64,000 bases of DNA from Escherichia coli (GTDB lineage Bacteria > Pseudomonadota > Gammaproteobacteria > Enterobacterales > Enterobacteriaceae), in NCBI RefSeq assembly GCF_013315695.1, contig NZ_CP054354.1; one strand, given 5' to 3'. Within the stretch, counting starts at the first letter, position 1; every line of letters begins with the position of its first letter. The notes below the pieces were generated by a model. It made no database searches. It worked only from the letters and a program-made list of their open reading frames with translations, and was not told the origin of the DNA. Shown piece after piece: positions 1 through 41,626 of this stretch. The position numbers and the translations under genes are program-made.

Positions 1-1032
1 GTGGCAGGTCTGAAGAATACTTCATATAACGCAGTACACTGGAGTCAGTTAGCACCCGAAGAGCAGATCCGTTTCTGGGAAGACTATGAAGCGGGAAGGG
101 CGACCACTTTCCTGGTTGAACCGGAAAGGAAGCGCACGAAGCGCCGTCGCGGTGAGCACTCCACCAAACCCAAATGCGAAAATCCGTCCTGGTATCGTCC
201 TGAGCGCTATAAAGCGCTGAAAGGGCAGCTCGGGCACGCCTATAACCGTCTGGTGAAAAAGGACCCGGTGACCGGCGAGCAGAGCCTGCGCATGCGCATG
301 TCGCGGCATCCTTTTTATGTACAGAAACGGACGTTCGTCGGTCGCAAATACGCTTTCCGGCCGGAAAAACAACGTCTCCTCGATGCCATCTGGCCGGTTC
401 TGGTCAGCTTCAGTGATGCCGGCACACATACCGTGGGGATGAGCGTCACTCGGCTGGCTGAAGAAATCAGCCCGAAAGACAGCGAGGGACATGTTATTCC
501 GGAACTGGAAGTGACGGTCTCCCGTCTTTCCCGTCTGCTGGCCGAACAGGTGCGCTTTGGTGTGCTGGGTGTGTCAGAGGAAACAATGTGGGACCGTGAA
601 CATCGTCAGCGTCTGCCACGTTACGTCTGGATAACACCGGCAGGCTGGCAGATGCTGGGCGTCGACATGGTAAAACTTCACGAACAGCAGCAGAAACGAC
701 TGCGTGAAAGTGAAATCCGCCAGCAGCTCATTCGGGAAGGTGTTCTGCGTGAGGATGAAGATATCTCCGTTCATGCGGCCAGAAAACGCTGGTATCTGCA
801 GCGCAGCCAGGATGCCCTGAAGAAGCGCCGAGAAAAAGCCGCAGCCAGCAAGCGTGCCAACCGCCTGAAGAAATTACCTGTTGACCAGCAGATTTATGAG
901 ATGGCTGAGTATCTCCGGAAGCGTCTGCCGCCGGATGAAGCCTATTTCTGTTCCGATGACCATCTGAAGCGACTGGCCATCAGGGAGTTGCGTCAGCTTG
1001 AACTGACGCTGGCTGCCCCGCCACCGCACTAG
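1..1032 (+). CDS. Plasmid replication initiation protein (RepZ/RepA1-type); ORF begins with GTG at window position 1, so true start may be here or upstream
   Basis: 343-aa basic protein with Lys/Arg-rich C-terminal half; followed 167 bp downstream by a consensus DnaA box, as at IncFII/IncI origins. Family assignment from memory, not alignment. Confidence 0.65.
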   Translation: MAGLKNTSYNAVHWSQLAPEEQIRFWEDYEAGRATTFLVEPERKRTKRRRGEHSTKPKCENPSWYRPERYKALKGQLGHAYNRLVKKDPVTGEQSLRMRMSRHPFYVQKRTFVGRKYAFRPEKQRLLDAIWPVLVSFSDAGTHTVGMSVTRLAEEISPKDSEGHVIPELEVTVSRLSRLLAEQVRFGVLGVSEETMWDREHRQRLPRYVWITPAGWQMLGVDMVKLHEQQQKRLRESEIRQQLIREGVLREDEDISVHAARKRWYLQRSQDALKKRREKAAASKRANRLKKLPVDQQIYEMAEYLRKRLPPDEAYFCSDDHLKRLAIRELRQLELTLAAPPPH

Positions 1033-1198
1033 ACAGCATCATTCCCTCAGCACTGAATCATCGCCAGCCCCTCCGGGGCTTTCGGCGCAGATTCCGCTCA
1101 GCCCAAAATCCTTAGTAGTCACCTTAAATCCCCTCAGAGGGGCATATCTGCCCATAAAACCACGCATCAGTCATCAGAACGTGGCCACGTTGTTTCAG

Positions 1199-1207
1199 TT
1201 ATCCACA
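1199..1207 (+). promoter_or_regulatory. DnaA box TTATCCACA in the putative origin region downstream of rep
   Basis: Exact 9-mer TTATCCACA at 1199-1207; GC-rich hairpins follow (e.g. cccgccc-gaa-gggcggg near 1530-1546). Confidence 0.45.
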
Positions 1208-1939
1208 TAAATCCGCAAACAAAGAACTTTAAGAAGCTGCAAACCTGAAACAGCAAACCTGCAATATATTCTTAACCCCATCATTTAATCCCCTGCGTTG
1301 CTTCGCCGCAGGGAAAGTCTTTATCTCTGAAACCACTGTGAACAAATACAAAGAGGCCTTCGCTTGCAGCGGCCAAGGCCGCGCCGCTCAGAATCTAAAA
1401 GCACCTCCCACGCTGACGCGCGGGCCCCGAACCTCACCGTTCTGAAACCACAACAAAAAGACATCAGGAATAAAAACACCACACAAACGCAGCACCGTGC
1501 CTACCCCTCATAACTGAAAAGCGAGGCCGCCCCCGCCCGAAGGGCGGGAACAACATCGCTTTTAATTATGAATGTTGTAACTATACTCCGTCATCGCTGT
1601 CAGTCTTCTCGCTGGAAGTATTGAGTACACGCTCGTAAGCGGCCCTCACGGCCCGCTAACGCGGAGATACGCCCCGACTTCGGGTAAACCCTCGTCGGGA
1701 CCACTCCGACCGCGCACAGAAGCTCTGTCATGGCTGAAAACGGGTATGGCTTAGCAGGGCTGGGGATGGGTAAGGTGAAATCTATCAATCAGTACCGGCT
1801 TACGCCGGGCTTCGGCGGTTTCACACCTGTGCTACATGTAACCACCGTATGCCGCCTTACATGCGCTGACGCGCATTATTTGCCTTGTTTCGTCTGAAAG
1901 TAATCACTATGATTAAATATGATTAACAACTAATCGGAT

Positions 1940-2224
1940 ATGCAAATGAAAAACAATACCGCACAGGCAACAAAAGTCATTACCGCGCATGTGCCATTAC
2001 CTATGGCTGATAAAGTCGACCAGATGGCCGCCAGGCTGGAACGCTCCCGGGGCTGGGTTATCAAACAGGCGCTTTCTGCATGGCTTGCCCAGGAGGAGGA
2101 GCGTAATCGCCTGACGCTGGAAGCCCTGGACGATGTGACATCCGGACAGGTTATCGACCATCAGGCTGTACAGGCCTGGGCGGACAGCCTCAGTACTGAC
2201 AATCCGTTACCGGTGCCACGCTGA
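1940..2224 (+). CDS. Type II antitoxin, ribbon-helix-helix (RelB/ParD/CopG-like)
   Basis: 94-aa ORF whose stop overlaps the toxin start (TGATG at 2222-2226); small acidic protein upstream of a RelE/ParE-like toxin. Confidence 0.75.
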   Translation: MQMKNNTAQATKVITAHVPLPMADKVDQMAARLERSRGWVIKQALSAWLAQEEERNRLTLEALDDVTSGQVIDHQAVQAWADSLSTDNPLPVPR

Positions 2225-2499
2225 TGGAACTGAAGTGGACCAGTAAGGCGCTTTCTGATTTGGCGCGGTTATATGATTTTCTGGTGCTGGCCAGTAAACC
2301 TGCGGCCGCCAGAACGGTGCAATCCCTGACACAGGCACCGGTCATTCTGTTAACTCATCCACGTATGGGAGAACAGTTGTTTCAGTTTGAACCCAGGGAG
2401 GTCAGACGGATTTTTGCTGGCGAGTACGAAATCCGTTACGAACTTAATGGCCAGACTATTTATGTATTGCGCCTGTGGCACACACGAGAAAACAGGTAG
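2224..2499 (+). CDS. Type II toxin, RelE/ParE family
   Basis: 91 aa, MELKWT...YEIRYELNGQTIYVLRLWHTRE, typical RelE/ParE length and C-terminal motif; translationally coupled to the upstream antitoxin. Confidence 0.8.
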   Translation: MELKWTSKALSDLARLYDFLVLASKPAAARTVQSLTQAPVILLTHPRMGEQLFQFEPREVRRIFAGEYEIRYELNGQTIYVLRLWHTRENR

Positions 2500-2604
2500 A
2501 TTGTGTGTGGGGACAACTTAACATAGCCTGCAGATATTAATTCTGGAATATTATTATCAGGCCAGATATTTTTCATTCCATTAAATAATCTTGTAGGAGA
2601 TAAA

Positions 2605-2886
2605 ATGAATTACGATGAAATAACAAAAATTACCGCTGAACGTATTAGCGACTACATGACCGAAGCAGTTAATACAGACTCTATAGCCGTTGCGGAAATG
2701 TTTCATAACGCTGCCTGGGGAGTGCGAACATTGTGGTTTGAACTCGTCACAAAAATAGATATAGATATACATAAAAAGAACAGGTATGCGAGTTATGATC
2801 TTAGAAGGAAAATCGAAATGCAGCATGAAGAGTTTCAGAAAATGACAGAGCGCGAGCAAGTGCCTTTATTGAAATCGCCAGAATAA
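2605..2886 (+). CDS. Hypothetical protein (93 aa), low-GC
   Basis: ATG preceded by RBS taggagataaa; AT-rich codon usage unlike the flanking backbone. Confidence 0.5.
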
Positions 2887-3076
2887 TAGAAACAGTACAA
2901 GTACATTGCTGTATTGTGTTTTCCTTGAATATTGAATCGCGGTGCCCATGTACTACGATTCCTTTCGTGTTGTTTATCATTGCACACTTTCCCTGACTGA
3001 GCGTAAACACTGACTACTTTCCCCTCAAACTCCTGGACGGCGAATGCAAAATTGGTCTGTTCCAGCATAGAATATG

Positions 3077-3346
3077 TTACTTTTTCATGACCGAACCCGA
3101 AATTTTGCGCGTCAATAAGAGACGTTGTGTAAACTCAGTCCTTTTATCTGGCAGGTTAACCCCTATCAATCTTAGGATGAAACCACGCCATCCTCTGTTT
3201 GCCTGGTTATTAATTTCATAAAGACGATTGTTTTCCTCTCGTAGTTTTGTCCACTCTAAACAAAGTGTTATATCATCCAGTTCTGTGATGTGTTTCACTT
3301 TTCCATTGACAGTTACAGTGTTTATTCCATTTCCTGTGATCATCAT
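3077..3346 (-). CDS. Hypothetical protein (89 aa), last gene of a minus-strand three-gene unit
   Basis: Start overlaps the stop of the upstream ORF (3343-3346); low GC. Confidence 0.4.
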   Translation of the reverse strand: MMITGNGINTVTVNGKVKHITELDDITLCLEWTKLREENNRLYEINNQANRGWRGFILRLIGVNLPDKRTEFTQRLLLTRKISGSVMKK

Positions 3347-3819
3347 CTTATGCCTTTTTTATCTTCATTTGGGACCGTGCTTTTCTTCGGAGTATCACTA
3401 TTCGTTAACTGCTGTTTATCAATAAAATTCCTGATGTTATCAAGTGCTTCCTTTGTTTTTAGAATGCGCTTGATATCCATTTCATCCCGCCCGGTCATTC
3501 TTTTTCCGGACAAAAGACGTTCAAGAAGCTCCTGTTTCGCATCAGGAGAATCTTTGGCGAGATCCATCAGGTTAAGCAAATCTTCACGATCGAGAGGAAA
3601 GAAGTATTTTACAAAATACTCGAAAAGCGAAAGAAAGTAGTATGCTGTCCATGCAATACCGAAACCGATTCCTATACAGAAATGCAGGTATATAATCAGG
3701 AGAATAGGTAAAATCCATAATACTATAGCTAAAAAAATATATACGGGGTACTGGCATCTGTATGCCCGTTCATGTTTATCCAGGATGAATAAAATCTTCT
3801 CCGCTTCTGAATCACACAT
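3343..3819 (-). CDS. Hypothetical membrane protein (~158 aa from ATG at 3819; ORF track extends to GTG at 3858)
   Basis: Two long hydrophobic segments (YPVYIFLAIVLWILPILLIIYLHFCIGIGFGIAWTAYYFL); GGGAAGAG SD-like sequence before the ATG at 3819. Confidence 0.45.
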   Translation of the reverse strand: MCDSEAEKILFILDKHERAYRCQYPVYIFLAIVLWILPILLIIYLHFCIGIGFGIAWTAYYFLSLFEYFVKYFFPLDREDLLNLMDLAKDSPDAKQELLERLLSGKRMTGRDEMDIKRILKTKEALDNIRNFIDKQQLTNSDTPKKSTVPNEDKKGIR

Positions 3820-3874
3820 AACATTCTCTTCCCATTTTTTCTGATACGTAATGTCCACCTGTTATCAGGAGTGT

Positions 3875-4477
3875 TTATTGCCCAGAAATATTCTCCTGCT
3901 GTGCCTGCATCCTGAGCCACTTTTGTTCTAATGTCGCCAGTCTGCGACCGGCACTCTGTGCTTCAGAGTCTGAGACCTGCCCTTTGGGGTGACCATCCAG
4001 GCCATAACGTGGGACGCCGGCGACAGCTGTCCGCTGCAGATATACGCGGCGGGATGTGATGCAGGACACTGCACAGAGCCATTCGTCCATGGTCAGTTCT
4101 GTCTCCGGGTGTTCTGCCAGAAATGCCGAAATATCATTGTTTATGCCAATTTTCAGGGGAATAAATCCACCACCTTCAGCACGAAGATGAGGAAACAGGG
4201 CCTTTATTTTTTCCACGCACTCGTGAGTATACTCACGGGTCCAGTGGGAGGGACGTGGAAAACGGTGTCTTTTCTTTTTCTTCTTCCTGGCTGGCGCTTC
4301 GGGGATATGTGTTTCGACGGCAGATGAATTTATTCCGGCGGGGGCTGATTCTGCCGTCTGTTCAGTAAATACAGGTGCGATAATATCTGTTTTTTCGGAT
4401 AAGGACGGTGGCGAAAAAGTACGACGTTTTTTCACCACAATGACGGGAGTTTTCCTTTCTTCCTGATTTTTTCCCAT
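3875..4477 (-). CDS. FinO/ProQ-domain RNA-binding protein
   Basis: 200 aa; Lys/Arg-rich N-terminal region (ARKKKKKRHRFPR) and a C-terminal segment (IPLKIGINNDI...ITSRRVYLQRTAVAGVPRYGLDGHPKGQV) that aligns by eye with the FinO C-terminal domain; GAGG RBS. Confidence 0.65.
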   Translation of the reverse strand: MGKNQEERKTPVIVVKKRRTFSPPSLSEKTDIIAPVFTEQTAESAPAGINSSAVETHIPEAPARKKKKKRHRFPRPSHWTREYTHECVEKIKALFPHLRAEGGGFIPLKIGINNDISAFLAEHPETELTMDEWLCAVSCITSRRVYLQRTAVAGVPRYGLDGHPKGQVSDSEAQSAGRRLATLEQKWLRMQAQQENISGQ

Positions 4478-4830
4478 AAATACCTCGGCTGGCTGGTTTT
4501 ACTCTTTAATAATATCACAATTCATAAATTAGTAAATTTCCCATCAGGTGATTTTTCATGGCTAATAAGTCCGTTCTCTGAGTATTTATACTCGAGGTAG
4601 TAACAGTTATGGCGTGACAGTCGAATTGATATTCTACTGAACCCTGACAGAAACATGGTTGATATATTCTCTCACTTTAATGTTGTCATGATATAAATAA
4701 AAACAATTCATTTGAAAGGATATCAGAAGAAGATATCGGGGCGCACAGTTCATCTCTGCCTTTGTTTCATGGGGTGTTCTTTGTATATTTTACTTACTGT
4801 TTAAGCATGTACATAAGGAGTGCTTTCATT

Positions 4831-6177
4831 ATGCCAATGATACTTGTAAAGAAGAATCCCCGGGGCAAAGTGATTCGGGAGCTTAGCAGTGAGGAAGAGA
4901 CTGCAGTAAAGACGGTCTGTGGACTGAAAAAGCCAGCAACCATGGCACTACATAACCTGGCCAATGATATTCTCCGGGAAATGCGTGAGTATGATGCATG
5001 GTTACAGTGTGACTGTATTCCGGGAGATTCGCCGGCCATGAATTTTGCTGCTCTTAAAAACAATACGGGTACTCTTTATCTGTCCAGTTTTAATCATGAG
5101 CATGCACCTGAATGCCCCATGTATCGTCAGTTATCCGGAAATGAAGAGGAAACATCTTCCGGAGCAAGCCGGCATCCCGTTAGCACCCGTATAAATTACA
5201 GAAACTTTTTACCACCTGATGACAGTAATTCTGTTATCAAACTGCAGGCCCGCTCTGCTTACCATAATGGTGAGAGCTCCTCCGTTCGCAAGAAACGTCC
5301 GCGCCTTGCCCGTTTACTCCTGTCGCTTATTGACGATGCTGGGCTGAATAAACTGGATTCCCTGGCTAATCCCCGTATCCGGACTAATTATCGTGAGTGT
5401 CTTGATGCCATACGGCAGGTTACACTGCAGCAGGAGTATATTCGGGGAAGATCCTTATCTGAAATTATCCATTTCCGGCCTGGAATGTCTGAAAGGTCTC
5501 AGGAGCGGTTAATGGAAACGCTGGAGAATTCAGAACGACACTGGCCTGCCAGAAGAAAACATATGTTCTTTCAGATTTTTATGGCGCAGCACATCTGTCG
5601 TGATGCTGTGGAAATTCACTGGGCGAACGGTAATATTCAGGTCATCAGACCTGTGCGGGGGATCAGTATTAATGGTGAAGCGCAGGGCGGAATACGTCCC
5701 CCTTACTGGGTTATTCTTGCTTTTTGCCGGAGTGCCGATGGCAGAATCATCTGCAGTGAAGGGTATGCTCATGCTCTTTATCAACTGACATGTCCGGTGC
5801 CTGTGGACAGCAAACTGGAACGAAACACGCTCACTGCTCTTCTGAATGTGGCCAGCTGGCTTAAAAGAAAGCCAGGTACGCCGGAATTAAGTCTGGAAAG
5901 GCCCCTGTTTGATACAGAAGTTTATGTTAATGGTGAAAAGAAATATGTCCTGCCGGATTTCATTGTCACTGCAAGGGCTCCTGACGGAAAGACGGCCAGA
6001 GTGGTCATCGAAACGATGGGATATGAAGACAGTGATTACTGCGCGAGAAAATCCAGGCAGCATACCGGCATGAAGCAGATTGGTGTTCTGCATACCGATC
6101 CACCGAAATGGCTGGATAACGATCATCCCCCTTTTGAGAAACATATGTACGGTGTTTTTATGCATCTCAGGTACTGA
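4831..6177 (+). CDS. Hypothetical protein (~449 aa) with a Cys/His cluster and a degenerate PD-(D/E)xK-like C-terminal motif
   Basis: ORF track 4762-6177; ATG at 4831 follows AAGGAG (4814-4819). CDCIPGD...HEHAPECP cluster; C-terminal YVLPDFIV...VVIETMGY resembles a TnsA/PD-(D/E)xK core but lacks the Lys. Confidence 0.6.
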   Translation: MPMILVKKNPRGKVIRELSSEEETAVKTVCGLKKPATMALHNLANDILREMREYDAWLQCDCIPGDSPAMNFAALKNNTGTLYLSSFNHEHAPECPMYRQLSGNEEETSSGASRHPVSTRINYRNFLPPDDSNSVIKLQARSAYHNGESSSVRKKRPRLARLLLSLIDDAGLNKLDSLANPRIRTNYRECLDAIRQVTLQQEYIRGRSLSEIIHFRPGMSERSQERLMETLENSERHWPARRKHMFFQIFMAQHICRDAVEIHWANGNIQVIRPVRGISINGEAQGGIRPPYWVILAFCRSADGRIICSEGYAHALYQLTCPVPVDSKLERNTLTALLNVASWLKRKPGTPELSLERPLFDTEVYVNGEKKYVLPDFIVTARAPDGKTARVVIETMGYEDSDYCARKSRQHTGMKQIGVLHTDPPKWLDNDHPPFEKHMYGVFMHLRY

Positions 6178-6204
6178 GATATTTTGTGGCTCAGTTCTGT
6201 AACT

Positions 6205-6250
6205 TTTCCCGTAACATTGTCTGTTGTTACGGGAAAGTCCGGTTTTTGTA
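6205..6250 (+). terminator. Putative rho-independent terminator after the 449-aa gene
   Basis: 12-bp stem tttcccgtaaca / tgttacgggaaa (6205-6236) followed by ggttttt. Confidence 0.4.
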
Positions 6251-6622
6251 TTGCACCAGAGAATACTCAGACTGTGATGCTGCCACAGCGTCAGCAGGCT
6301 TTCTGAACGGTGTAACATTACTTCATGTTAATGATAATCACTATCATTAAATCTTGACATGCCATTTTCTCCTTAATAAATTAATACTGTATATGTATCC
6401 ATATACGTAAGCAGTTAATTCATTTGTTTTCCTCAGAGGATGAAGGAGATACCGAATGTCTGACCCTGTACGGGGTTCAGTGAGTTAGCTGGCCTGGATG
6501 TAACCACTCGTTCAACTCAATTCTCTTAGCGTGGGAAAATTTCCCTTTTCCAAGCGGACCCCTATTAATATTTGTTTTGTTTTAGGTTCTATTCAACATA
6601 GGTCATCCTAAAATACATTGAA

Positions 6623-6654
6623 GATAACAAGATAACAAGATAACAAGATAACAA
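6623..6654. repeat. Iteron array: 4 tandem copies of GATAACAA plus inverted copies, downstream of the partition operon
   Basis: gataacaa x4 at 6623-6654, then ggtgttatcttgttatc inverted copies to ~6690. Confidence 0.55.
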
Positions 6655-6679
6655 GGTGTTATCTTGTTATCTCAAGGTG

Positions 6680-6982
6680 TTATCTTTGTTTTACTTCTGC
6701 TATCAATCGTGATACCTCTGTTTTTGATAGTGTTTTAAGTGCTTCTACCGCCGCCCTGACAACATCAGAACGATTCACTCTGCCTTTACCTGAAACCATC
6801 TCAGCCGTTATAAGGGCATCAATGTCTTTTAGGTTTTCTTCAAAAAAAGAAATACTCACTGGTTTTGCTTTGCTTACAACCGATGATTTATCTGATGACT
6901 TTTTGGTATTATCAAGGCCAGCCGTGCCACCGTTAATAAATGCTGCCTCGTCACGAGGTGAAGTGTTTGCTCTATTTCTCAC
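6680..6982 (-). CDS. Partition centromere-binding protein, ParG-like (predicted ribbon-helix-helix C-terminus)
   Basis: 100 aa; GTG start overlapping the ParA stop (GTGA); C-terminal GRVNRSDVVRAAVEALKTL fits a strand-helix-helix pattern; sits immediately after a small ParA. Confidence 0.55.
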   Translation of the reverse strand: MRNRANTSPRDEAAFINGGTAGLDNTKKSSDKSSVVSKAKPVSISFFEENLKDIDALITAEMVSGKGRVNRSDVVRAAVEALKTLSKTEVSRLIAEVKQR

Positions 6983-7605
6983 AGAATAACCTCTTTCACT
7001 AACGCTTCGATTTCTTGCTGGGCTTTATCATTTTGCGTTTCAAAAATTGTCATTGATTCGGCCCAAGCATCTCGATGTGCTTTACGATCACATACCCGGG
7101 AGTTTGCCAGATGCATTTCAGGGTAATCCTTAAGTACTTCAGCTGCCTCATTGGCTTCATTAACAAACATATTTGTGGGCGTCATGTTTAAAACGAGATA
7201 TCCCCGAACATCCTCATTAAAATCTTTTGCTGCTGTAAAAACGGAGCATGTATGAGGCACAACATCCAGGTCCATCTGAGATGGGCGCAAAGGAGAAATG
7301 AATACATCTGCGGCCATCAATCCACTACGCATTTCTGCGCTATCACGGCCAGCACAGTCTGCAATAACAAAATCATAGGATTTTTCGTGTTCCTTTAACA
7401 TGGCTTTGATGTTACCTGTCGCGCCTGTAACCGGAATATGAGGGAGATCTTCAGGGCGATTGTTGTACCAGGTTAATACTGATTTCTGGTCATCTGCGTC
7501 GACAATAATCACTCTATTGCCTAGTGACATCAGATACGCAGCTATAGATACCGCCAGTGTACTTTTACCTACCCCACCCTTTTGACTACCTAATACTATT
7601 ATCAT
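6979..7605 (-). CDS. Partition ATPase, small ParA (type Ib, ParF-like)
   Basis: 208 aa with deviant Walker A KGGVGKST near the N-terminus; GAGG RBS; flanked by iteron arrays. Confidence 0.9.
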   Translation of the reverse strand: MIIVLGSQKGGVGKSTLAVSIAAYLMSLGNRVIIVDADDQKSVLTWYNNRPEDLPHIPVTGATGNIKAMLKEHEKSYDFVIADCAGRDSAEMRSGLMAADVFISPLRPSQMDLDVVPHTCSVFTAAKDFNEDVRGYLVLNMTPTNMFVNEANEAAEVLKDYPEMHLANSRVCDRKAHRDAWAESMTIFETQNDKAQQEIEALVKEVIL

Positions 7606-7731
7606 TATAGCCTCATATTAAGCTGTTAAGTTAACAACTTAATATTGCCATCTGAACGCGAACCATGCAATTATTTTTGTTATGTTAACAACTTAGCAAG
7701 TTGTTAAGTATTTGATTTATAGATTAATTAA

Positions 7732-7795
7732 GATAACAAGATAACAAGATAACAAGATAACAAGATAACAAGATAACAAGATAACAGGATAACAA
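7732..7795. repeat. Iteron array: 8 tandem copies of GATAACAA (one GATAACAG) upstream of parA; likely centromere/operator
   Basis: Perfect 8-bp tandem repeats 7732-7795; additional palindromes (ttaagttaacaactt) at 7620-7710. Confidence 0.6.
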
Positions 7796-7816
7796 TATTA
7801 TGGGTGGATTACATAT

Positions 7817-9088
7817 TCATAACTGGGCTACTGGCAAATCTGTCCATCTGGTGGTATACGCAGGAGAAAGCATTTCCCGTTTCATTTGCCATTCAGGGGC
7901 GGTTCCTCGCCCCGCAAACCACACTTTCCCTTTTCCCGACTGGTTCAGTTCATCGAGTGTTTTCATTAACTTTTCACTGTTTTTACGGGGCTGGATTTCA
8001 TCAAATAATCCCGGCTGCGCTATACCCGATGGTGTGAAATCAGCCAGCATGACACCTGCCTTCATATAGCGGTACCCTTCACGCCAGACATGGTTTAACG
8101 CTCTGCATGCTGCGGCAATAATGTCCCGGCTGTCCTGTGTGGGCAATGGAAGCTTTTCCACAGCGGCATTGCTGTAACAGGGTTCTTTTACTGCAAAGGG
8201 GGATGTCCGTACAAATGTCGTCACCTGCCGGCAATACTGACGCTCCCCACGTAGTTTCTCTGCGGCCCGCTCTGCATACTGAACAACAGCCTGGTGCATG
8301 GCATCTTTGTCTGTGATTCGTTCACCAAAACTGCGACTACAGACAATCTGCTGTTTTGCCGGCGGTGCTTCTTCCAGAGATATGCAGGACTCGCCGTTGA
8401 GTTCGCGTACCGTACGCTCAAGAATGACGCTGAAGTTTTTCCGGATGAATGCCGTGTTAGCCTGCGCCAGCTGCAGTGCTGTGTTAATACCCAGCGCATT
8501 CAGCTTTTCCGTCAGTCTGCGTCCTACTCCCCAGACCTCACCAACTGGCTGCAACCCCAGTAGCTTCAAGATCCGATTACGGTTTTCTGCCGTCAGCGCG
8601 ACCACACCGGAAAACTGTGGCCATTGCTTTGTTGCCCACTGGGCACTTTTAGCCAGCGTTTTTGTAGGCGCAATGCCCACCCCCATGGTGAGTCCTGTCC
8701 AGCTCTTTACCTGTTCCCTGAGCTGATGACCAAAAATCTCCGGAGAGATGCAATGATTTATCCCCCGCAAATCAATGAACATTTCATCAATTGAGTAGGG
8801 CTCAACTGCGGGAGAAAGCGACTCCAGAACAGCCATAACCCGTTGGCTCATGCTGTGGTACAGCGCATAATTGCTGGAAAATACATGTATTTTCTTCTCC
8901 AGGCGCATTTGTCTCACCTGAAACCAGGGCTGCCCCATTCTGATGCCAAGGGCTTTTGCCTCCGGGCTGCGCGCGATCACACAGCCATCGTTATTGCTGA
9001 GTACGATGACCGGTTCGTTGCGAAGGTCCGGGCGGAAAACTTTTTCACATGAGGCGTAGAAACTGTTGATATCAGCCAGTGCAAACAT
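7817..9088 (-). CDS. impB: Error-prone Y-family DNA polymerase subunit, UmuC homologue (ImpB)
   Basis: 423 aa, N-terminus MFALADINSFYASCE...VIVLSNNDGCVIARS typical of UmuC/MucB/ImpB; start overlaps impA stop. Confidence 0.95.
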   Translation of the reverse strand: MFALADINSFYASCEKVFRPDLRNEPVIVLSNNDGCVIARSPEAKALGIRMGQPWFQVRQMRLEKKIHVFSSNYALYHSMSQRVMAVLESLSPAVEPYSIDEMFIDLRGINHCISPEIFGHQLREQVKSWTGLTMGVGIAPTKTLAKSAQWATKQWPQFSGVVALTAENRNRILKLLGLQPVGEVWGVGRRLTEKLNALGINTALQLAQANTAFIRKNFSVILERTVRELNGESCISLEEAPPAKQQIVCSRSFGERITDKDAMHQAVVQYAERAAEKLRGERQYCRQVTTFVRTSPFAVKEPCYSNAAVEKLPLPTQDSRDIIAAACRALNHVWREGYRYMKAGVMLADFTPSGIAQPGLFDEIQPRKNSEKLMKTLDELNQSGKGKVWFAGRGTAPEWQMKREMLSPAYTTRWTDLPVAQL

Positions 9089-9525
9089 CAGCGTAACTCC
9101 CGCGTCCTGTGTATCACGTGAGTGACAACACCAAAAATACAGATGTTTTCCGGATACAGTGTGCGGAACTCCGGGCTGTCTGAAACCGGCTCCAGTGCCG
9201 GGCGTGGGCGCAACAGCAGTCGTTTGACGGTGGACTCACCGTCGATCTCAGCGATAACGATGTCCCCGTGTTGTGGTTTTTCGGCCCTGTCCACTACCAG
9301 CAGATCACCATTCTGCACGCCAGCCTGGTTCATCGATTCACCGCTGGCGCGCAGAAAGAAGGTGGCTGCAGGTCTGCTGATGCAATAGCTGTTCAGATCC
9401 AGTTCCTGCTCAGCATAATCAGTGGCAGGCGAAGGAAAACCGGCCTGGCAACGATCGGCAAACAACGGTCGCACGTAACTGTCATCGCCTGAAGGGTCAG
9501 CCGGACGGTGATAAACGGTACTCAT
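9088..9525 (-). CDS. impA: UmuD homologue (ImpA), LexA-like S24 peptidase
   Basis: 145 aa with the S24 self-cleavage region (GESMNQAGVQNGDLLVVDR) and Lys in VKRL; overlaps impC stop. Confidence 0.9.
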   Translation of the reverse strand: MSTVYHRPADPSGDDSYVRPLFADRCQAGFPSPATDYAEQELDLNSYCISRPAATFFLRASGESMNQAGVQNGDLLVVDRAEKPQHGDIVIAEIDGESTVKRLLLRPRPALEPVSDSPEFRTLYPENICIFGVVTHVIHRTRELR

Positions 9526-9770
9526 GCTGCAGGCAGCCAGCTGTCGTCCTGCCAGATTTCTTCCAGCAGAGACAGGATACGTTCTTTATCCTTGTCGTTG
9601 CGGGCTCCTGTGACAGATACAGACGGGGCGCTGCCCTGGTCTATACGCAGCCAGATTTCCGGGTAGTGTGGTTTCAGACGTTGTTCGATTTCATTCTGTA
9701 GCGCCTGAAGTGTGCCTGATTTGAGGTTTTTTGTGCTCTGGCGGTCGAAAAGAATTTCAATGCGGATCAT
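9522..9770 (-). CDS. impC: ImpC, small first gene of the impCAB operon
   Basis: 82 aa from ATG at 9770 (MIRIEILFDRQ...), GGAG RBS; ORF track extends it to 9941 but upstream codons lack an RBS and overlap the LexA box. Confidence 0.7.
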   Translation of the reverse strand: MIRIEILFDRQSTKNLKSGTLQALQNEIEQRLKPHYPEIWLRIDQGSAPSVSVTGARNDKDKERILSLLEEIWQDDSWLPAA

Positions 9771-9794
9771 GTTCTCATCTCCCTTTTCTTTATG

Positions 9795-9810
9795 CTGTAT
9801 GTTTATACAG
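9795..9810 (-). promoter_or_regulatory. LexA (SOS) box CTGT-N8-ACAG upstream of impC
   Basis: ctgtatgtttatacag at 9795-9810, 25 bp upstream of the impC start. Confidence 0.75.
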
Positions 9811-10164
9811 TATTCTAATAACTGAATCCGCACACAGTCAAATGTCATTGTTGTGACTAAAAAACGCTCAATTCTCTGAGTGTGTGGCTGTATGCCTGCT
9901 GTGGGCTGCTGTGTCCAGCTTATCCACAGCATTTTGTGCACGGTTCTGTGGACAAAATACCTGGTTACCCAGGCCGTGCCGGCACGTTAACCGGGCTGCA
10001 TCCGATGCAAGTGTGTCGCTGTCGCCGGCCTCCTCACCCGGTCACGTTTCGTCGTTCCTCCTCCACGCGCTGCGGCTTCGGGGCCGCACCTGCATTCGTA
10101 TGCGGTCGCCCGGTAACAGGTGCGGCACGGCCTGATGGAGGCCGCATGTGAGAGGAGAATTCCC

Positions 10165-11091
10165 ATGCCAAACTGGTGCTCGAATCGTATGTATTTTTCT
10201 GGTGAACCGGCACAGATCGCTGAGATTAAACGACTGGCCAGCGGTGCAGTCACACCGCTTTATCGCCGCGCTACAAATGAAGGTATTCAGCTGTTTCTGG
10301 CCGGAAGTGCCGGACTTCTGCAGATCACTGAAAATATCCGCTCTGAGCAGTGCCCCGGAGTGACGGCTGCCGGACGTGGTGCTGTATCACCGGAAAATAT
10401 CGCGTTCACCCGCTGGCTGACACACCTGCAGAACGGTGTACTGCTGGATGAGCAAAACTGCCTGATGCTGCATGAACTCTGGCTGCAGAGCGGTACTGGA
10501 CAGCGTCGCTGGGAAGAGTTACCGGATGATGTCAGGGAAACTATCACTGTGCATTTCACCGCAAAAAGAGGTGACTGGTGTGACATCTGGGGTAACGAGG
10601 ATGTATCGGTGTGGTGGAACCGTCTGTGTGACAACGTACTGCCGGAAAAAACCATGCCGTTTGACCTGCTGACGGTTTTGCCGACCCGCCTGGATATTGA
10701 AGTGAATGGCTTTAACGGCGGTGTTCTGAACGGTGTTCCTTCTGCATATCACTGGTATACAGAACGGTATGGCGTGAAGTGGCCTTGTGGGTATGACCTG
10801 AATATCAGCAGTCAGGGGGAAAACTTCATTCAGGTAGATTTCGACACGCCGTGGTGTCAGCCGGAAAGCGACGTTGTTGCAGAATTAAGCCGCCGTTTCG
10901 GCTGCACGCTGGAGCACTGGTACGCCGAACAGGGCTGCAATTTCTGTGGCTGGCAGTTGTATGAGCGCGGAGAGCTCGTTGATGTGCTGTGGGGGGAACT
11001 GGAATGGTCTTCCCCGACAGATGATGATGAGCTGCCGGAAGTCACCGGACCTGCGTGGATAATCGACAATGTGGCGCATTATGGCGGATGA
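10165..11091 (+). CDS. Conserved hypothetical leading-region protein (~308 aa)
   Basis: ATG at 10165 follows GAGGAG (10152-10157); ORF track start 10120 has no RBS; Trp/Cys-rich. Confidence 0.6.
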   Translation: MPNWCSNRMYFSGEPAQIAEIKRLASGAVTPLYRRATNEGIQLFLAGSAGLLQITENIRSEQCPGVTAAGRGAVSPENIAFTRWLTHLQNGVLLDEQNCLMLHELWLQSGTGQRRWEELPDDVRETITVHFTAKRGDWCDIWGNEDVSVWWNRLCDNVLPEKTMPFDLLTVLPTRLDIEVNGFNGGVLNGVPSAYHWYTERYGVKWPCGYDLNISSQGENFIQVDFDTPWCQPESDVVAELSRRFGCTLEHWYAEQGCNFCGWQLYERGELVDVLWGELEWSSPTDDDELPEVTGPAWIIDNVAHYGG

Positions 11092-11103
11092 AGTATGACG
11101 GAG

Positions 11104-11130
11104 ACGGGCGGGCAACCGCCCGTTTCTTTT
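11104..11130 (+). terminator. Putative rho-independent terminator
   Basis: Stem acgggcgg / ccgcccgt with loop gcaa, followed by ttcttttcc. Confidence 0.4.
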
Positions 11131-11475
11131 CCGACAAAGGATGTCGCCGTGCTCCTCTTTTTACTGCGCCGGCTGACGCGGCGCGGCATAAACGCTGCCT
11201 GTGGTCAGTGTCCCGCGTCCGGCCGGGCACGGGACGGGCGCTTTTACCGCTCCCGGCTGGCGTCGGTGACAGTGTACGCCAGCCCGTCGCCCTTTTCTGA
11301 TGAACGCCCTTCAAGCCGCTTTCGCGGCATAGCCTTGCCGTCAGAAAGACGACGGCTGCGGTATTCCACGGTCGGCCTGACCCGTTACCGGACGCGGTGA
11401 ACAGCCCACAGGCAGCGGGGAACGGGCACCACAGGGGTGCCCTCCCGGTGCCCTCTGTAAGAGAAGGAGTTTGGT

Positions 11476-12159
11476 ATGTCCCGTTTTGTCCTCGGTAACT
11501 GCATCGATGTTATGGCCCGTATCCCTGATAACGCCATTGATTTCATCCTCACCGACCCGCCGTACCTCGTCGGTTTTCGTGACCGTCAGGGGCGTACCAT
11601 TGCCGGCGATAAAACCGATGAATGGCTGCAACCGGCCTGTAATGAGATGTACCGCGTACTCAAAAAAGACGCGTTAATGGTGAGCTTCTATGGCTGGAAT
11701 CGCGTCGATCGTTTTATGTCTGCCTGGAAAAATGCGGGATTCAGCGTTGTTGGTCACCTGGTCTTCACCAAAAACTACACATCGAAGGCCGCATATGTGG
11801 GCTATCGCCACGAATGTGCCTACATCCTGGCAAAAGGCCGTCCACGTCTGCCACAAAACCCGCTGCCGGACGTGCTGGGCTGGAAATATTCGGGCAATCG
11901 CCATCACCCGACGGAAAAGCCCGTTACCAGCCTGCAACCACTGATTGAGAGCTTCACACATCCGAACGCGATTGTGCTGGACCCGTTTGCAGGCAGCGGA
12001 TCAACCTGCGTGGCCGCTCTTCAGTCCGGACGCCGGTATATCGGTATCGAGCTGCTTGAACAGTATCACCGTGCCGGACAGCAACGACTGACCGCCGTGC
12101 AACGGGCCATGCAGCAGGGGGCCGCGAATGATAACTGGTTTGAACCGGAGGCTGCGTAA
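11476..12159 (+). CDS. Orphan DNA N6-adenine methyltransferase
   Basis: 227 aa with DPPY motif (ILTDPPYLVG) and AdoMet-binding FAGSGST; AAGGAG RBS; no adjacent restriction gene. Confidence 0.9.
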   Translation: MSRFVLGNCIDVMARIPDNAIDFILTDPPYLVGFRDRQGRTIAGDKTDEWLQPACNEMYRVLKKDALMVSFYGWNRVDRFMSAWKNAGFSVVGHLVFTKNYTSKAAYVGYRHECAYILAKGRPRLPQNPLPDVLGWKYSGNRHHPTEKPVTSLQPLIESFTHPNAIVLDPFAGSGSTCVAALQSGRRYIGIELLEQYHRAGQQRLTAVQRAMQQGAANDNWFEPEAA

Positions 12160-40039: not shown

Positions 40040-41626
40040 TCAATTATGACAGTCGCTCTCATTTAGTTGTCTCTGGTTAGATGTATTATTAGATATTTTC
40101 GGGGTAATTCGATAAAAGTTATCCACTTCAGCACCAGACTGAATGATATATGCAATAAGATCTAAACGATGAATCTCGTATCGTGTACGTAACTCCATCA
40201 TTTCACGCCATGCTAAAATCCTTGATGTTTTCAGTTCAGCCTCTATAAGTTTCCATGTGTTTGTTGAGATGGCATGTTCTTCCAGCTGACGTAACGAGAA
40301 CCTATCACTAATGACCAACCATCCCCATCCTCGAGTATGTGCCCATTTGCGACCTGCATTACTTTTTATTCTCGTGAGACTCAAGGTCATTCGGTCTGTT
40401 GGCTTCACTTCCATAAGTAGGCACCGACCATCAACTGTCGCAATGAGTAAATCTGGATAGTATTTTTTTGATTTGTTTTTAAAACAATATGGAATAGAAA
40501 ATGGTTGTTCTTGATAGAAAAGAACCTGATCGCAACATTCTAATAGATTCATTATTTTAAACTCAAGCCCTGATTCGTACTGGACTGTACGACCTAATTT
40601 TTGAGAGTAAAAGAATCCAGATATGTCAGTATCATTAACCGCTCTCTGTGAACATAGCTGTTCTACGGGGGGAGGAGGTGCGATATATTTTGGCCAATGT
40701 GTATTGTCTAGCCATTTACTGAATATGAACTCAACTCTTTCTTTCTTGATTCGGGCTCTTTCCTGAGCGCGAGCGTGTGCTAATTCTGCTCTTCGTTCAC
40801 GTAACCTCTGCTTTTGTAATTGTGATATTAATGAGAGCGAACTTTTTATTTCATCTCGTCTTGCTTTAGGAATGCCTGCGGTAAAAATAATGAATTTGGC
40901 GGCTAAGTCAGAGGATGTAACGAAATCCCGATGAACAATACGATAAATCCATACTGCTATATCATATGGTGAATTACCTATTGAGTTAATAAGGGCTTTA
41001 AGGCAAGCTCCAGGTGTCCCTTCATAGCGAGATTTAGCAGCTAGTAAGCCAAGGGCTCGTTCCTGAAGTTGTCTTACCCTTTCACGGGAAATTCCTAATT
41101 TGACGGCAATATCTGCCAGAGAATGAGGTGAATCATCTGTGCCGAGTCGCATTAGAAGAATATATTGATGTCGTTTATTAGATAAACTTTCGATAGCAGA
41201 ATGAATTAGCATAATGACATCATGTTCATCGGCTATATAATCTTTAAAATCTGTATTGGGTTGGCAGAGGGGGAGTGGGGTATTTTGTTTAAAACTATTC
41301 TTTTGTATTTCAACTTTATCATGAGCAATTGTTTTTGCAGTGCTCAATGATATTAAATTATTGATGATACTATTGTGTTCTTGGCGAGGAATCTTGTTGA
41401 AGTAATTGCTGAGATCATTCACCGTGTTTATATCGTTGAACTCAAGAAACTCAGAAGGAAGCAGGCGTTTGATTGCTCCACGTATTCCCCCGGACGATCG
41501 TTGATGTGTTTGAGTAAGTTTTTTTAGCGAGACGCCCTCCGCTATGGATACGAGAAGACGCTGTAACTCTTCAGTATTCCATGGAGTACCATGTCGTGCT
41601 GGAAAATTGCTGCGGGATTCAGACAT
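40040..41626 (-). CDS. AT-rich multi-domain protein: Myb/SANT-like N-terminus, sigma-70 region-4-type HTH, C-terminal TnsA-like PD-(D/E)xK endonuclease (528 aa)
   Basis: GTPWNTEELQRLL (SANT-like W..EEL), SLADIAVKLGISRERVRQLQERALGLL (sigma r4/LuxR-type HTH), QYESGLEF...YYPDLLIATVDGRCLLMEVKP (E...PD...EVK nuclease core). Domain calls by eye. Confidence 0.65.
   Translation of the reverse strand: MSESRSNFPARHGTPWNTEELQRLLVSIAEGVSLKKLTQTHQRSSGGIRGAIKRLLPSEFLEFNDINTVNDLSNYFNKIPRQEHNSIINNLISLSTAKTIAHDKVEIQKNSFKQNTPLPLCQPNTDFKDYIADEHDVIMLIHSAIESLSNKRHQYILLMRLGTDDSPHSLADIAVKLGISRERVRQLQERALGLLAAKSRYEGTPGACLKALINSIGNSPYDIAVWIYRIVHRDFVTSSDLAAKFIIFTAGIPKARRDEIKSSLSLISQLQKQRLRERRAELAHARAQERARIKKERVEFIFSKWLDNTHWPKYIAPPPPVEQLCSQRAVNDTDISGFFYSQKLGRTVQYESGLEFKIMNLLECCDQVLFYQEQPFSIPYCFKNKSKKYYPDLLIATVDGRCLLMEVKPTDRMTLSLTRIKSNAGRKWAHTRGWGWLVISDRFSLRQLEEHAISTNTWKLIEAELKTSRILAWREMMELRTRYEIHRLDLIAYIIQSGAEVDNFYRITPKISNNTSNQRQLNESDCHN

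Follow-up and report, generated by a model that had tools for sequence, protein, structure and literature searches.

The DNA considered here is a stretch of 64,000 nucleotides from Escherichia coli (contig NZ_CP054354.1 of assembly GCF_013315695.1), hereafter called the window, and the gene under study is yagA, an open reading frame (ORF) on its plus strand (Table 1). The whole window is an IncI1 plasmid, and yagA is one of the genes of its backbone. The encoded protein, YagA, is 100% identical to WP_001132017.1, which is annotated as 'yagA: protein YagA' in IncI1 plasmids, and the 1.6-kb yagA region has 100% matches in several records, one of which, pEC00606_6, carries it at the same coordinates. 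An earlier annotation of the window, made from the nucleotide letters only and referred to below as the sequence-only reading, had described the ORF as encoding an unknown protein of 449 residues. The ORF is real, but its product comprises 448 amino acids, as the figure of 449 includes the stop codon; the word unknown is appropriate for the function of the protein, whereas the gene has long been named. Concerning the start of translation, the ATG at position 4831 is favoured over an upstream TTG because the homologues, once aligned, start at the same M-x-M-(K/I)-L-V sequence as YagA. The gene had also been credited with a ribosome-binding site and a terminator of its own, and both were found: an AAGGAG sequence precedes the start codon and a terminator-like hairpin lies 3' of the gene. 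A scan for the sigma-70 consensus detected no promoter on the plus strand 5' of yagA, and a scan of positions 1-12000 of the window against Rfam detected no RNA family.

Table 1. Features of the yagA locus and of the encoded protein. Positions are those of the window, except in the last row, where they are those of the loci named. aa, amino acids; pLDDT, predicted local distance difference test.
Feature	Position	Strand	Basis or remark
yagA coding sequence	4831..6177	+	ORF list; ATG at 4831, stop codon ends at 6177; 448 codons plus stop
Ribosome-binding site AAGGAG	4815..4820	+	read directly from the sequence; 10 nucleotides 5' of the ATG
Putative zinc-binding cluster C60-x-C62 ... H91-x3-C95	5008..5115	+	conservation; predicted metal binding
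Linker, aa 133-151, probably flexible, then basic stretch RKKRPRLARLL	5227..5283	+	pLDDT < 50 in the full-length model
Central domain, aa ~155-325, helical and beta-rich	5293..5805	+	no solved structural relative
C-terminal PD-(D/E)xK nuclease-like domain, Bax1/DUF790 type, aa 326-448	5806..6174	+	Pfam tag PF27227 Endonuc-like_C
E330 in helix alpha-1 (328-345), motif VDSxxER, putative first metal-binding acid	5818..5820	+	125/125 relatives
Motif II, P375-D376-F377, start of core strand beta-2	5953..5961	+	D in 123/125 relatives
Motif III, E394-T-M396-G397, end of core strand beta-3	6010..6021	+	E in 122/125 and M in 107/125 relatives
Y403-C-A-R406-K407, helix after beta-3	6037..6051	+	Y in 123/125 and K in 123/125 relatives
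Terminator-like hairpin, stem of 12-13 bp, then T-run	6204..6247	+	hairpin 6204-6237; inverted repeat 6205-6216 / 6225-6236
Small gene 5' of yagA homologues in other loci	L009 6371-6994; L020 769-1392; L016 8751-9047; L019 3324-3665

The C-terminus of YagA belongs to the PD-(D/E)xK nuclease superfamily, with the acidic residues of this superfamily in place and the lysine of the canonical ExK motif absent. The structural model of the protein exhibits the topology alpha1(328-345)-beta1-hairpin-beta2(377-382)-beta3(388-394)-alpha2(401-414)-beta4, and its structural neighbours are nearly all PD-(D/E)xK nucleases, which bears out the likeness to nucleases that the sequence-only reading had predicted. 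A Foldseek search of the model against the PDB returned no match at E <= 0.001. The motif YVLPDFIV...VVIETMGY, to which that reading had drawn attention, is present at residues 372-398, and a methionine (M396) occupies the position of the ExK lysine. Conservation was assessed on a set of 125 distant relatives with a median identity of 23% to YagA. The near-universal residues in this set are C60, C62, H91, C95, S327, E330, R331, K357, P358, P375, D376, F377, E394, M396, G397, Y403, K407 and M414. At position 396, a lysine is observed in none of the 125 relatives.

The N-terminal region of this protein carries the Cys/His cluster that had been noted previously, and this cluster is genuine: C60, C62, H91 and C95, in the sequence C60-D-C62 ... 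H91-APE-C95, do not vary among 26 homologues and show a conservation of 98-100% among the 125 distant relatives. From this pattern, the CxC...Hx3C cluster is probably a zinc site. The central domain is confidently modelled and, as modelled, has no solved relative; the N-terminal two-thirds of YagA as a whole are without a solved counterpart.

YagA is a member of a large family. A word-indexed search retrieved 116 close homologues, mostly enterobacterial and 30-59% identical, and an exhaustive profile search (E <= 1e-3) retrieved 807 clusters at 50% identity, nearly all of them comprising 420-470 amino acids. As the gene is conserved across 807 clusters, the pattern observed is well beyond chance. 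In scans against Pfam, NCBIfam, PADLOC and PHROGs, YagA itself gave nothing significant, the only traces being DUF790 (E = 0.25) and a restriction-endonuclease model of NCBIfam (E = 0.066). The precomputed tag PF27227 Endonuc-like_C is carried by the cluster representative that is 98% identical to YagA (P0001) and by most homologues, distant ones included; judged by these tags, the family falls in this recent Pfam entry. Other labels found are 'DUF8534', given by RefSeq to an N-terminal fragment, and 'DUF1173 family protein', given by UniRef to a homologue with 53% identity.

The family (about 440 amino acids) is nearly confined to proteobacterial plasmids, with homologues in 1,452 plasmid records versus 0 of 50,697 phage records. 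More than 1,000 plasmids have an annotated yagA. At the nucleotide level, yagA-like DNA is found in 1,249 PLSDB plasmids and yagA DNA in 904 of 5,426 complete E. coli genomes, where 1,000 of the 1,022 places are on plasmids. Among the 1,249 plasmid records, 291 (about 23%) have no contiguous match covering 80% of yagA and contain partial or interrupted copies; truncated forms of the gene are present in many IncI1 plasmids. Between the IncI1 and IncI-gamma alleles, the ratio of nonsynonymous to synonymous substitution rates is 0.41, a value which comes from 17 differences only and is uninformative. A copy with 98% identity was also observed on an 8-kb contig binned as a metagenome-assembled genome (MAG) of Collinsella (Actinomycetota; L012 4595-5938), and this contig is most likely a mis-binned fragment of an enterobacterial IncI1 plasmid.

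With regard to solved structures, the nearest relatives of YagA by sequence profile are the Bax1 endonucleases, which are archaeal repair enzymes. When a profile was built from the C-terminal domain only, with the 36 diverse sequences of alignment A3, its top PDB matches were five Bax1-type chains, with E between 2.3e-4 and 1e-2, and the next match was at E = 0.47. Four of the five chains, which come from several archaea, are named Bax1, and the other one, 8gy8_A, was deposited as an IF-2 homologue and is aligned over the same motifs. This link emerges solely when the profile is confined to the C-terminal domain, as PDB searches with the whole protein, either as a single sequence or as a full-length profile, returned only a chance match to phosphoribosyl pyrophosphate synthetase. 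The Pfam family DUF790 (PF05626) is matched at E <= 0.05 by 37 of 89 members of the YagA family, with a best value of 2.2e-5. In the profile alignment, D376, E394, M396, G397, Y403 and K407 of YagA are equivalent to D305, E318, A320, G321, Y327 and K331 of AfBax1, respectively, and the topology of the model suggests that E330, which is not itself aligned with it, is the equivalent of E275. The active site of the nuclease domain of AfBax1 is formed by E275, D305 and E318, the last having been assigned structurally, and the substitutions D305A in AfBax1 and D301A in SsBax1 reduce or abolish the nuclease domain's activity (PMC7293015).

These equivalences bear directly on the missing lysine. Bax1 is an experimentally active nuclease whose motif III has no lysine (PMC7293015). 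In DUF790, the lysine of motif III has moved to the alpha-helix that follows the third core strand, and several accepted PD-(D/E)xK families exhibit such a relocated lysine (PMC1913061). YagA and Bax1 have in common the pattern PDF ... (I/V)E-x-hydrophobic-G ... (E/D)Y-x3-K, the absence of a lysine in motif III and the presence of one on the next helix; because YagA shares this Bax1/DUF790 arrangement, the absence of its ExK lysine is explained, and K407 can be put forward from the alignment as the candidate relocated catalytic lysine. The likeness ends with the nuclease domain. The N-terminal two-thirds are unrelated, with XPB-binding and Cas2-like domains in Bax1 versus the CxC...HxxxC cluster and a novel central domain in YagA. 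Bax1 is archaeal and chromosomal, whereas YagA is bacterial and plasmid-borne. Moreover, Bax1 associates with the superfamily 2 helicase XPB, whereas the neighbours of YagA are FopA, ParA, Rep3, an integrase and UmuDC, no XPB helicase adjoins it, and no recurrent helicase was found near the YagA homologues in the 31 loci described below.

DUF1173 (PF06666) resembles YagA in its general architecture, with about 400-450 amino acids, the same Cys/His motif and the same type of C-terminal domain. According to its published description, this family combines a CysXCys...HisX3-5Cys motif at the N-terminus with a PD-(D/E)xK-related domain at the C-terminus that lacks the canonical signature, its nearest relative by HHsearch being DUF790 (Laganeckas et al. 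2011, PMC3045609). The DUF1173 hidden Markov model does not match YagA at E <= 1, and 3 of 89 relatives match it weakly (best 5.4e-4), in their N-terminal part only. In addition, the PD and E residues are near-invariant in the YagA family, whereas DUF1173 is described as not conserving the active-site signature. Taken by sequence, the YagA family behaves as a sister family of DUF1173. The acidic triad E-D-E of YagA is also arranged as in the Hjc and VRR-Nuc enzymes, but these retain the lysine of ExK, and YagA is about four times larger and contains two extra domains. The E-x-x-G end of strand beta-3 is a feature which we take to resemble Vsr-like enzymes (Vsr, I-Bth0305I and the DUF559 protein NGO0050). 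No similarity was detected at the sequence level between YagA and Hjc, VRR-Nuc or Vsr-like enzymes.

Based on these comparisons, we propose that YagA is a divalent-metal-dependent DNA endonuclease of the Bax1/DUF790 type which acts as a plasmid accessory factor, and we assign to this proposal a probability of roughly 0.55. Although position 396 is never a lysine, YagA is read as probably active, by means of a relocated lysine, because E330, D376, E394, Y403 and K407 are 98-100% conserved. In the mechanism that we envisage, E330 of alpha-1, D376 of beta-2 and E394 of beta-3 would bind the metal, whereas K407, on the following helix and with Y403 nearby, would take over the role of the motif-III lysine by supplying the positive charge, as in DUF790. 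Recognition of the DNA would fall to the putative zinc-binding N-terminus together with the novel central domain. As for the substrate, the analogy with Bax1, VRR-Nuc and Hjc favours a DNA structure, such as a fork, a flap, a bubble or a junction, over a sequence. Finally, as a non-essential accessory, YagA could process intermediates of the replication, recombination or repair of its own plasmid.

This last step is suggested by the steady position of the gene among Par, Rep, resolvase and UmuDC genes. The genomic context was examined in a sample of 31 loci, comprising IncI1, other enterobacterial plasmids, replicons of Acidiphilium, Sphingomonas and Rhizobium, and metagenomic contigs. Within 6 kb of the YagA homologues, ParA and a tyrosine recombinase were each found in 11 loci, UmuC in 8, Rep3/RepE in 7 and a small ParB-like protein in 6, and the gene order recombinase, small ParB, ParA, YagA, Rep3, UmuCD is repeated. 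The Pfam families found most often in the 144 immediate neighbours are ParA-like (7), Phage_integrase (7), Rep3 (6) and impB/UmuC (4). We therefore prefer, tentatively and with less than even confidence, a role in the maintenance of plasmid DNA or in the processing of repair intermediates over a role in conflicts with other genetic elements.

Several observations weigh against the proposal of a plasmid accessory endonuclease. The match of YagA itself to Pfam DUF790 scores 10.5 bits, which is under the gathering cut-off of 28.8. At codon 357 (5899-5901), which belongs to a K-P motif after core strand beta-1, YagA exhibits an arginine, as do all the cluster representatives of IncI1 type that were checked and that extend over it, whereas 124 of the 125 relatives exhibit a lysine. 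The 2011 analysis of DUF1173 considered that the link of that family with nucleases may be 'structural rather than functional' (PMC3045609). The pattern of neighbouring genes may come from a shared plasmid ancestry and not from a functional coupling. Furthermore, yagA is dispensable, as indicated by the partial or interrupted copies in about 23% of the matching plasmid records, by a known insertion site and by split homologues. The insertion site in question is yagA itself, into which ISEcp1-blaCTX-M and other resistance elements are known to insert. The split homologues, each divided into two ORFs, were found in an Enterobacteriaceae MAG (L021 1674-3009) and in Pantoea stewartii (L025 3810-4935), and are likely pseudogenes. 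In the literature, yagA is mentioned as a backbone gene and as a member of a 'stability region', a name that was given without evidence, and a 2020 paper on the neighbouring gene yafB refers to its product as a protein of unknown function (PMC7491321).

An active nuclease could also be engaged in a conflict role, as a single-gene interference factor that cuts the DNA or the replication intermediates of phages or rival plasmids. The isolation of the gene, which stands alone with its own ribosome-binding site and terminator, is in line with this possibility, as is its position in a variable accessory region of IncI1, where relatives carry colicin genes and where ColIb-P9 holds ibfA, an inhibitor of phages T5 and BF23. 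The divergence of YagA points in the same direction. When IncI1 is compared with pECC59-2-type plasmids, YagA has 31-32% identity, versus 92% for ParA, 64% for the small ParB and 67% for UmuC, and UmuD is 58-60% identical in other related plasmids. In the comparison with loci L008, L023, L024, L018 and L025, the identities are 31-48% for YagA, 85-92% for ParA, 54-66% for the small ParB, 67-70% for UmuC and 58-60% for UmuD. A divergence above that of the neighbours points to rapid evolution, or to the replacement of alleles, at this slot. Some neighbours are of the defence type, namely AAA_13, DUF6361 and a helicase (L007), RES (L002), and proteins matching DpdF, AbiTii and IetA models, but such models are sporadic: in the set of 144 neighbours, each defence family has at most 3 members and none is recurrent, unlike the maintenance genes. 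Moreover, YagA matches no PADLOC model, the gene has no partner methylase or immunity gene, and neither homologues in the 50,697 phage records nor links to counter-defence were found. We therefore consider a conflict role unlikely, if slightly less so than the alternative discussed next. A related and equally doubtful idea is that the family consists of plasmid-specific, zinc-module-guided endonucleases acting as specificity or conflict determinants, for instance by cutting the replication or conjugation intermediates of rival plasmids or incoming DNA. If this were true, the N-terminal and central domains would together make up a new module for DNA recognition, and the identity of 31% for YagA, against 58-92% for its neighbours, would reflect an arms race or a switching of target specificity.

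The second alternative is that YagA is catalytically dead and serves as a DNA-binding or scaffold protein with a nuclease fold, the fold and the zinc module binding DNA, for example at a plasmid site, without cutting it. The absence of the motif-III lysine in 125 of 125 relatives speaks for this reading, and the arginine that IncI1 YagA exhibits in place of the near-universal K357, like the opinion expressed on the architecturally identical DUF1173, is favourable to it. The gene lies next to genes for partition and replication, a setting in which DNA-binding adaptors are frequent, and this location is equally compatible with a binding role. However, the preservation of the three acidic residues, Y403 and K407 in 98-100% of relatives at a median identity of 23% is as expected if an active site has been maintained, and Bax1 is active with the same lysine-less motif, in which the Asp aligned with that of YagA is needed for the nuclease domain's activity. 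The sequence-only reading had left room for an inactive nuclease, and this branch has become the less likely one, given the activity of Bax1 and the conservation of K407 (98%) and of the acids (98-100%). A dead binder thus appears improbable.

The third alternative, which stems from the resemblance to TnsA claimed in the sequence-only reading, sees in YagA a transposition endonuclease of the TnsA type or what is left of a degenerated one. That reading had called for a pairwise comparison with a 528-residue protein encoded on the minus strand at 40040-41626, which matches Pfam Tn7_TnsA-like_N (PF08722, E = 5e-12). This comparison was not significant by BLASTP, whereas a profile alignment with hhalign (E = 1e-3, probability 20%) placed E330 opposite E, PDF opposite PDL and ETM opposite EVK, in register. 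The top Foldseek match of the YagA model is likewise TnsA (1t0f_A; E = 0.036, probability 0.66), although not a significant one. Both proteins are of the PD-(D/E)xK type, with the motif order E ... PD(F/L) ... hhhE-x-(K/M), but YagA exhibits a methionine instead of the lysine, and the TnsA-like domain of the 528-residue protein is flanked by a helix-turn-helix of sigma-70 region 4. The resemblance between YagA and TnsA appears to be real, at the level of the superfamily only. As YagA has no match to Tn7_TnsA-like_N even at E <= 1, as the sequence profiles indicate Bax1/DUF790 as the nearest relatives, and as neither a TnsB-like transposase nor transposon ends flank yagA in IncI1 and 30 other loci, where the few transposases nearby are those of insertion sequence elements, a transposition role is largely refuted and very improbable. 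The 528-residue protein is itself an odd fusion of sigma-70 region 4 (E = 4e-9) with a TnsA-like endonuclease domain; it has an intact E...PD...EVK motif, adjoins excA and a hok/gef toxin gene, and is without a transposase partner.

Several further observations were made on the surroundings of yagA and of its homologues. In the window, yagA is divergent from yafB (3875-4477, minus strand), which encodes a FinO/ProQ-domain protein (Pfam ProQ, E = 1.4e-12) and is the same gene as fopA, encoding a plasmid FinO-domain RNA-binding protein (PMC7491321). A functional pair of FopA and YagA is unsupported, as FopA is not next to the YagA homologues in the other loci examined. An array of 8-bp direct repeats, AAGATAAC, with inverted copies, TGTTATCTT, occupies positions 6621-6686, in the interval from yagA to the 3' end of the small-ParB/ParA operon. 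This array is shorter by five units (40 bp) in the window than in the otherwise identical pEC00606_6, and it may be a partition (centromere-like) site of variable copy number. Regulation of yagA by the SOS response was considered and rejected, as a motif scan detected no LexA-box-like site 5' of the gene. A perfect LexA-box-like palindrome, CTGTATGTTTATACAG, is located at 9795-9810, where it adjoins a dinI-like gene and umuDC-type (imp) genes, and it is the sole CTGT-N8-ACAG sequence with zero mismatches within the window.

The yagA homologues of Yersinia ruckeri, Pantoea brenneri and Rahnella have a small gene (about 100-207 amino acids, with a weak winged-helix-like signal) on their 5' side, which in Y. 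ruckeri abuts the start codon of yagA. This small gene, which has no IncI1 counterpart, may be an operon partner or a regulator. The alphaproteobacterial copies of YagA are close to type IV secretion genes and a DNA methylase gene. In Acidiphilium (L026-L032), an ATP-grasp protein (Pfam ATPgrasp_ST, E = 5e-25) always precedes the YagA homologue, which is followed on its 3' side by a Pro/Ala-rich protein of ~430 amino acids, an N6/N4 DNA methylase and a large membrane protein, a context unlike the enterobacterial one.

As for what was already known, yagA is catalogued, and its fold class had been identified in Pfam and, as far as the sister family DUF1173 is concerned, in publications. The link with Bax1, which explains the missing lysine, the definition of a candidate active site and the finding that the N-terminal two-thirds have no solved counterpart are new. 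The gene is part of the backbone of the IncI1 group of plasmids, and these are major vehicles of extended-spectrum beta-lactamase and AmpC resistance genes. If YagA is inert, the present analysis is a routine refinement of annotation only. The five residues E330, D376, E394, Y403 and K407 make of an anonymous ORF a testable enzyme hypothesis, and if YagA is a structure-specific nuclease of plasmid maintenance or competition, it would be a widespread new player in plasmid biology.

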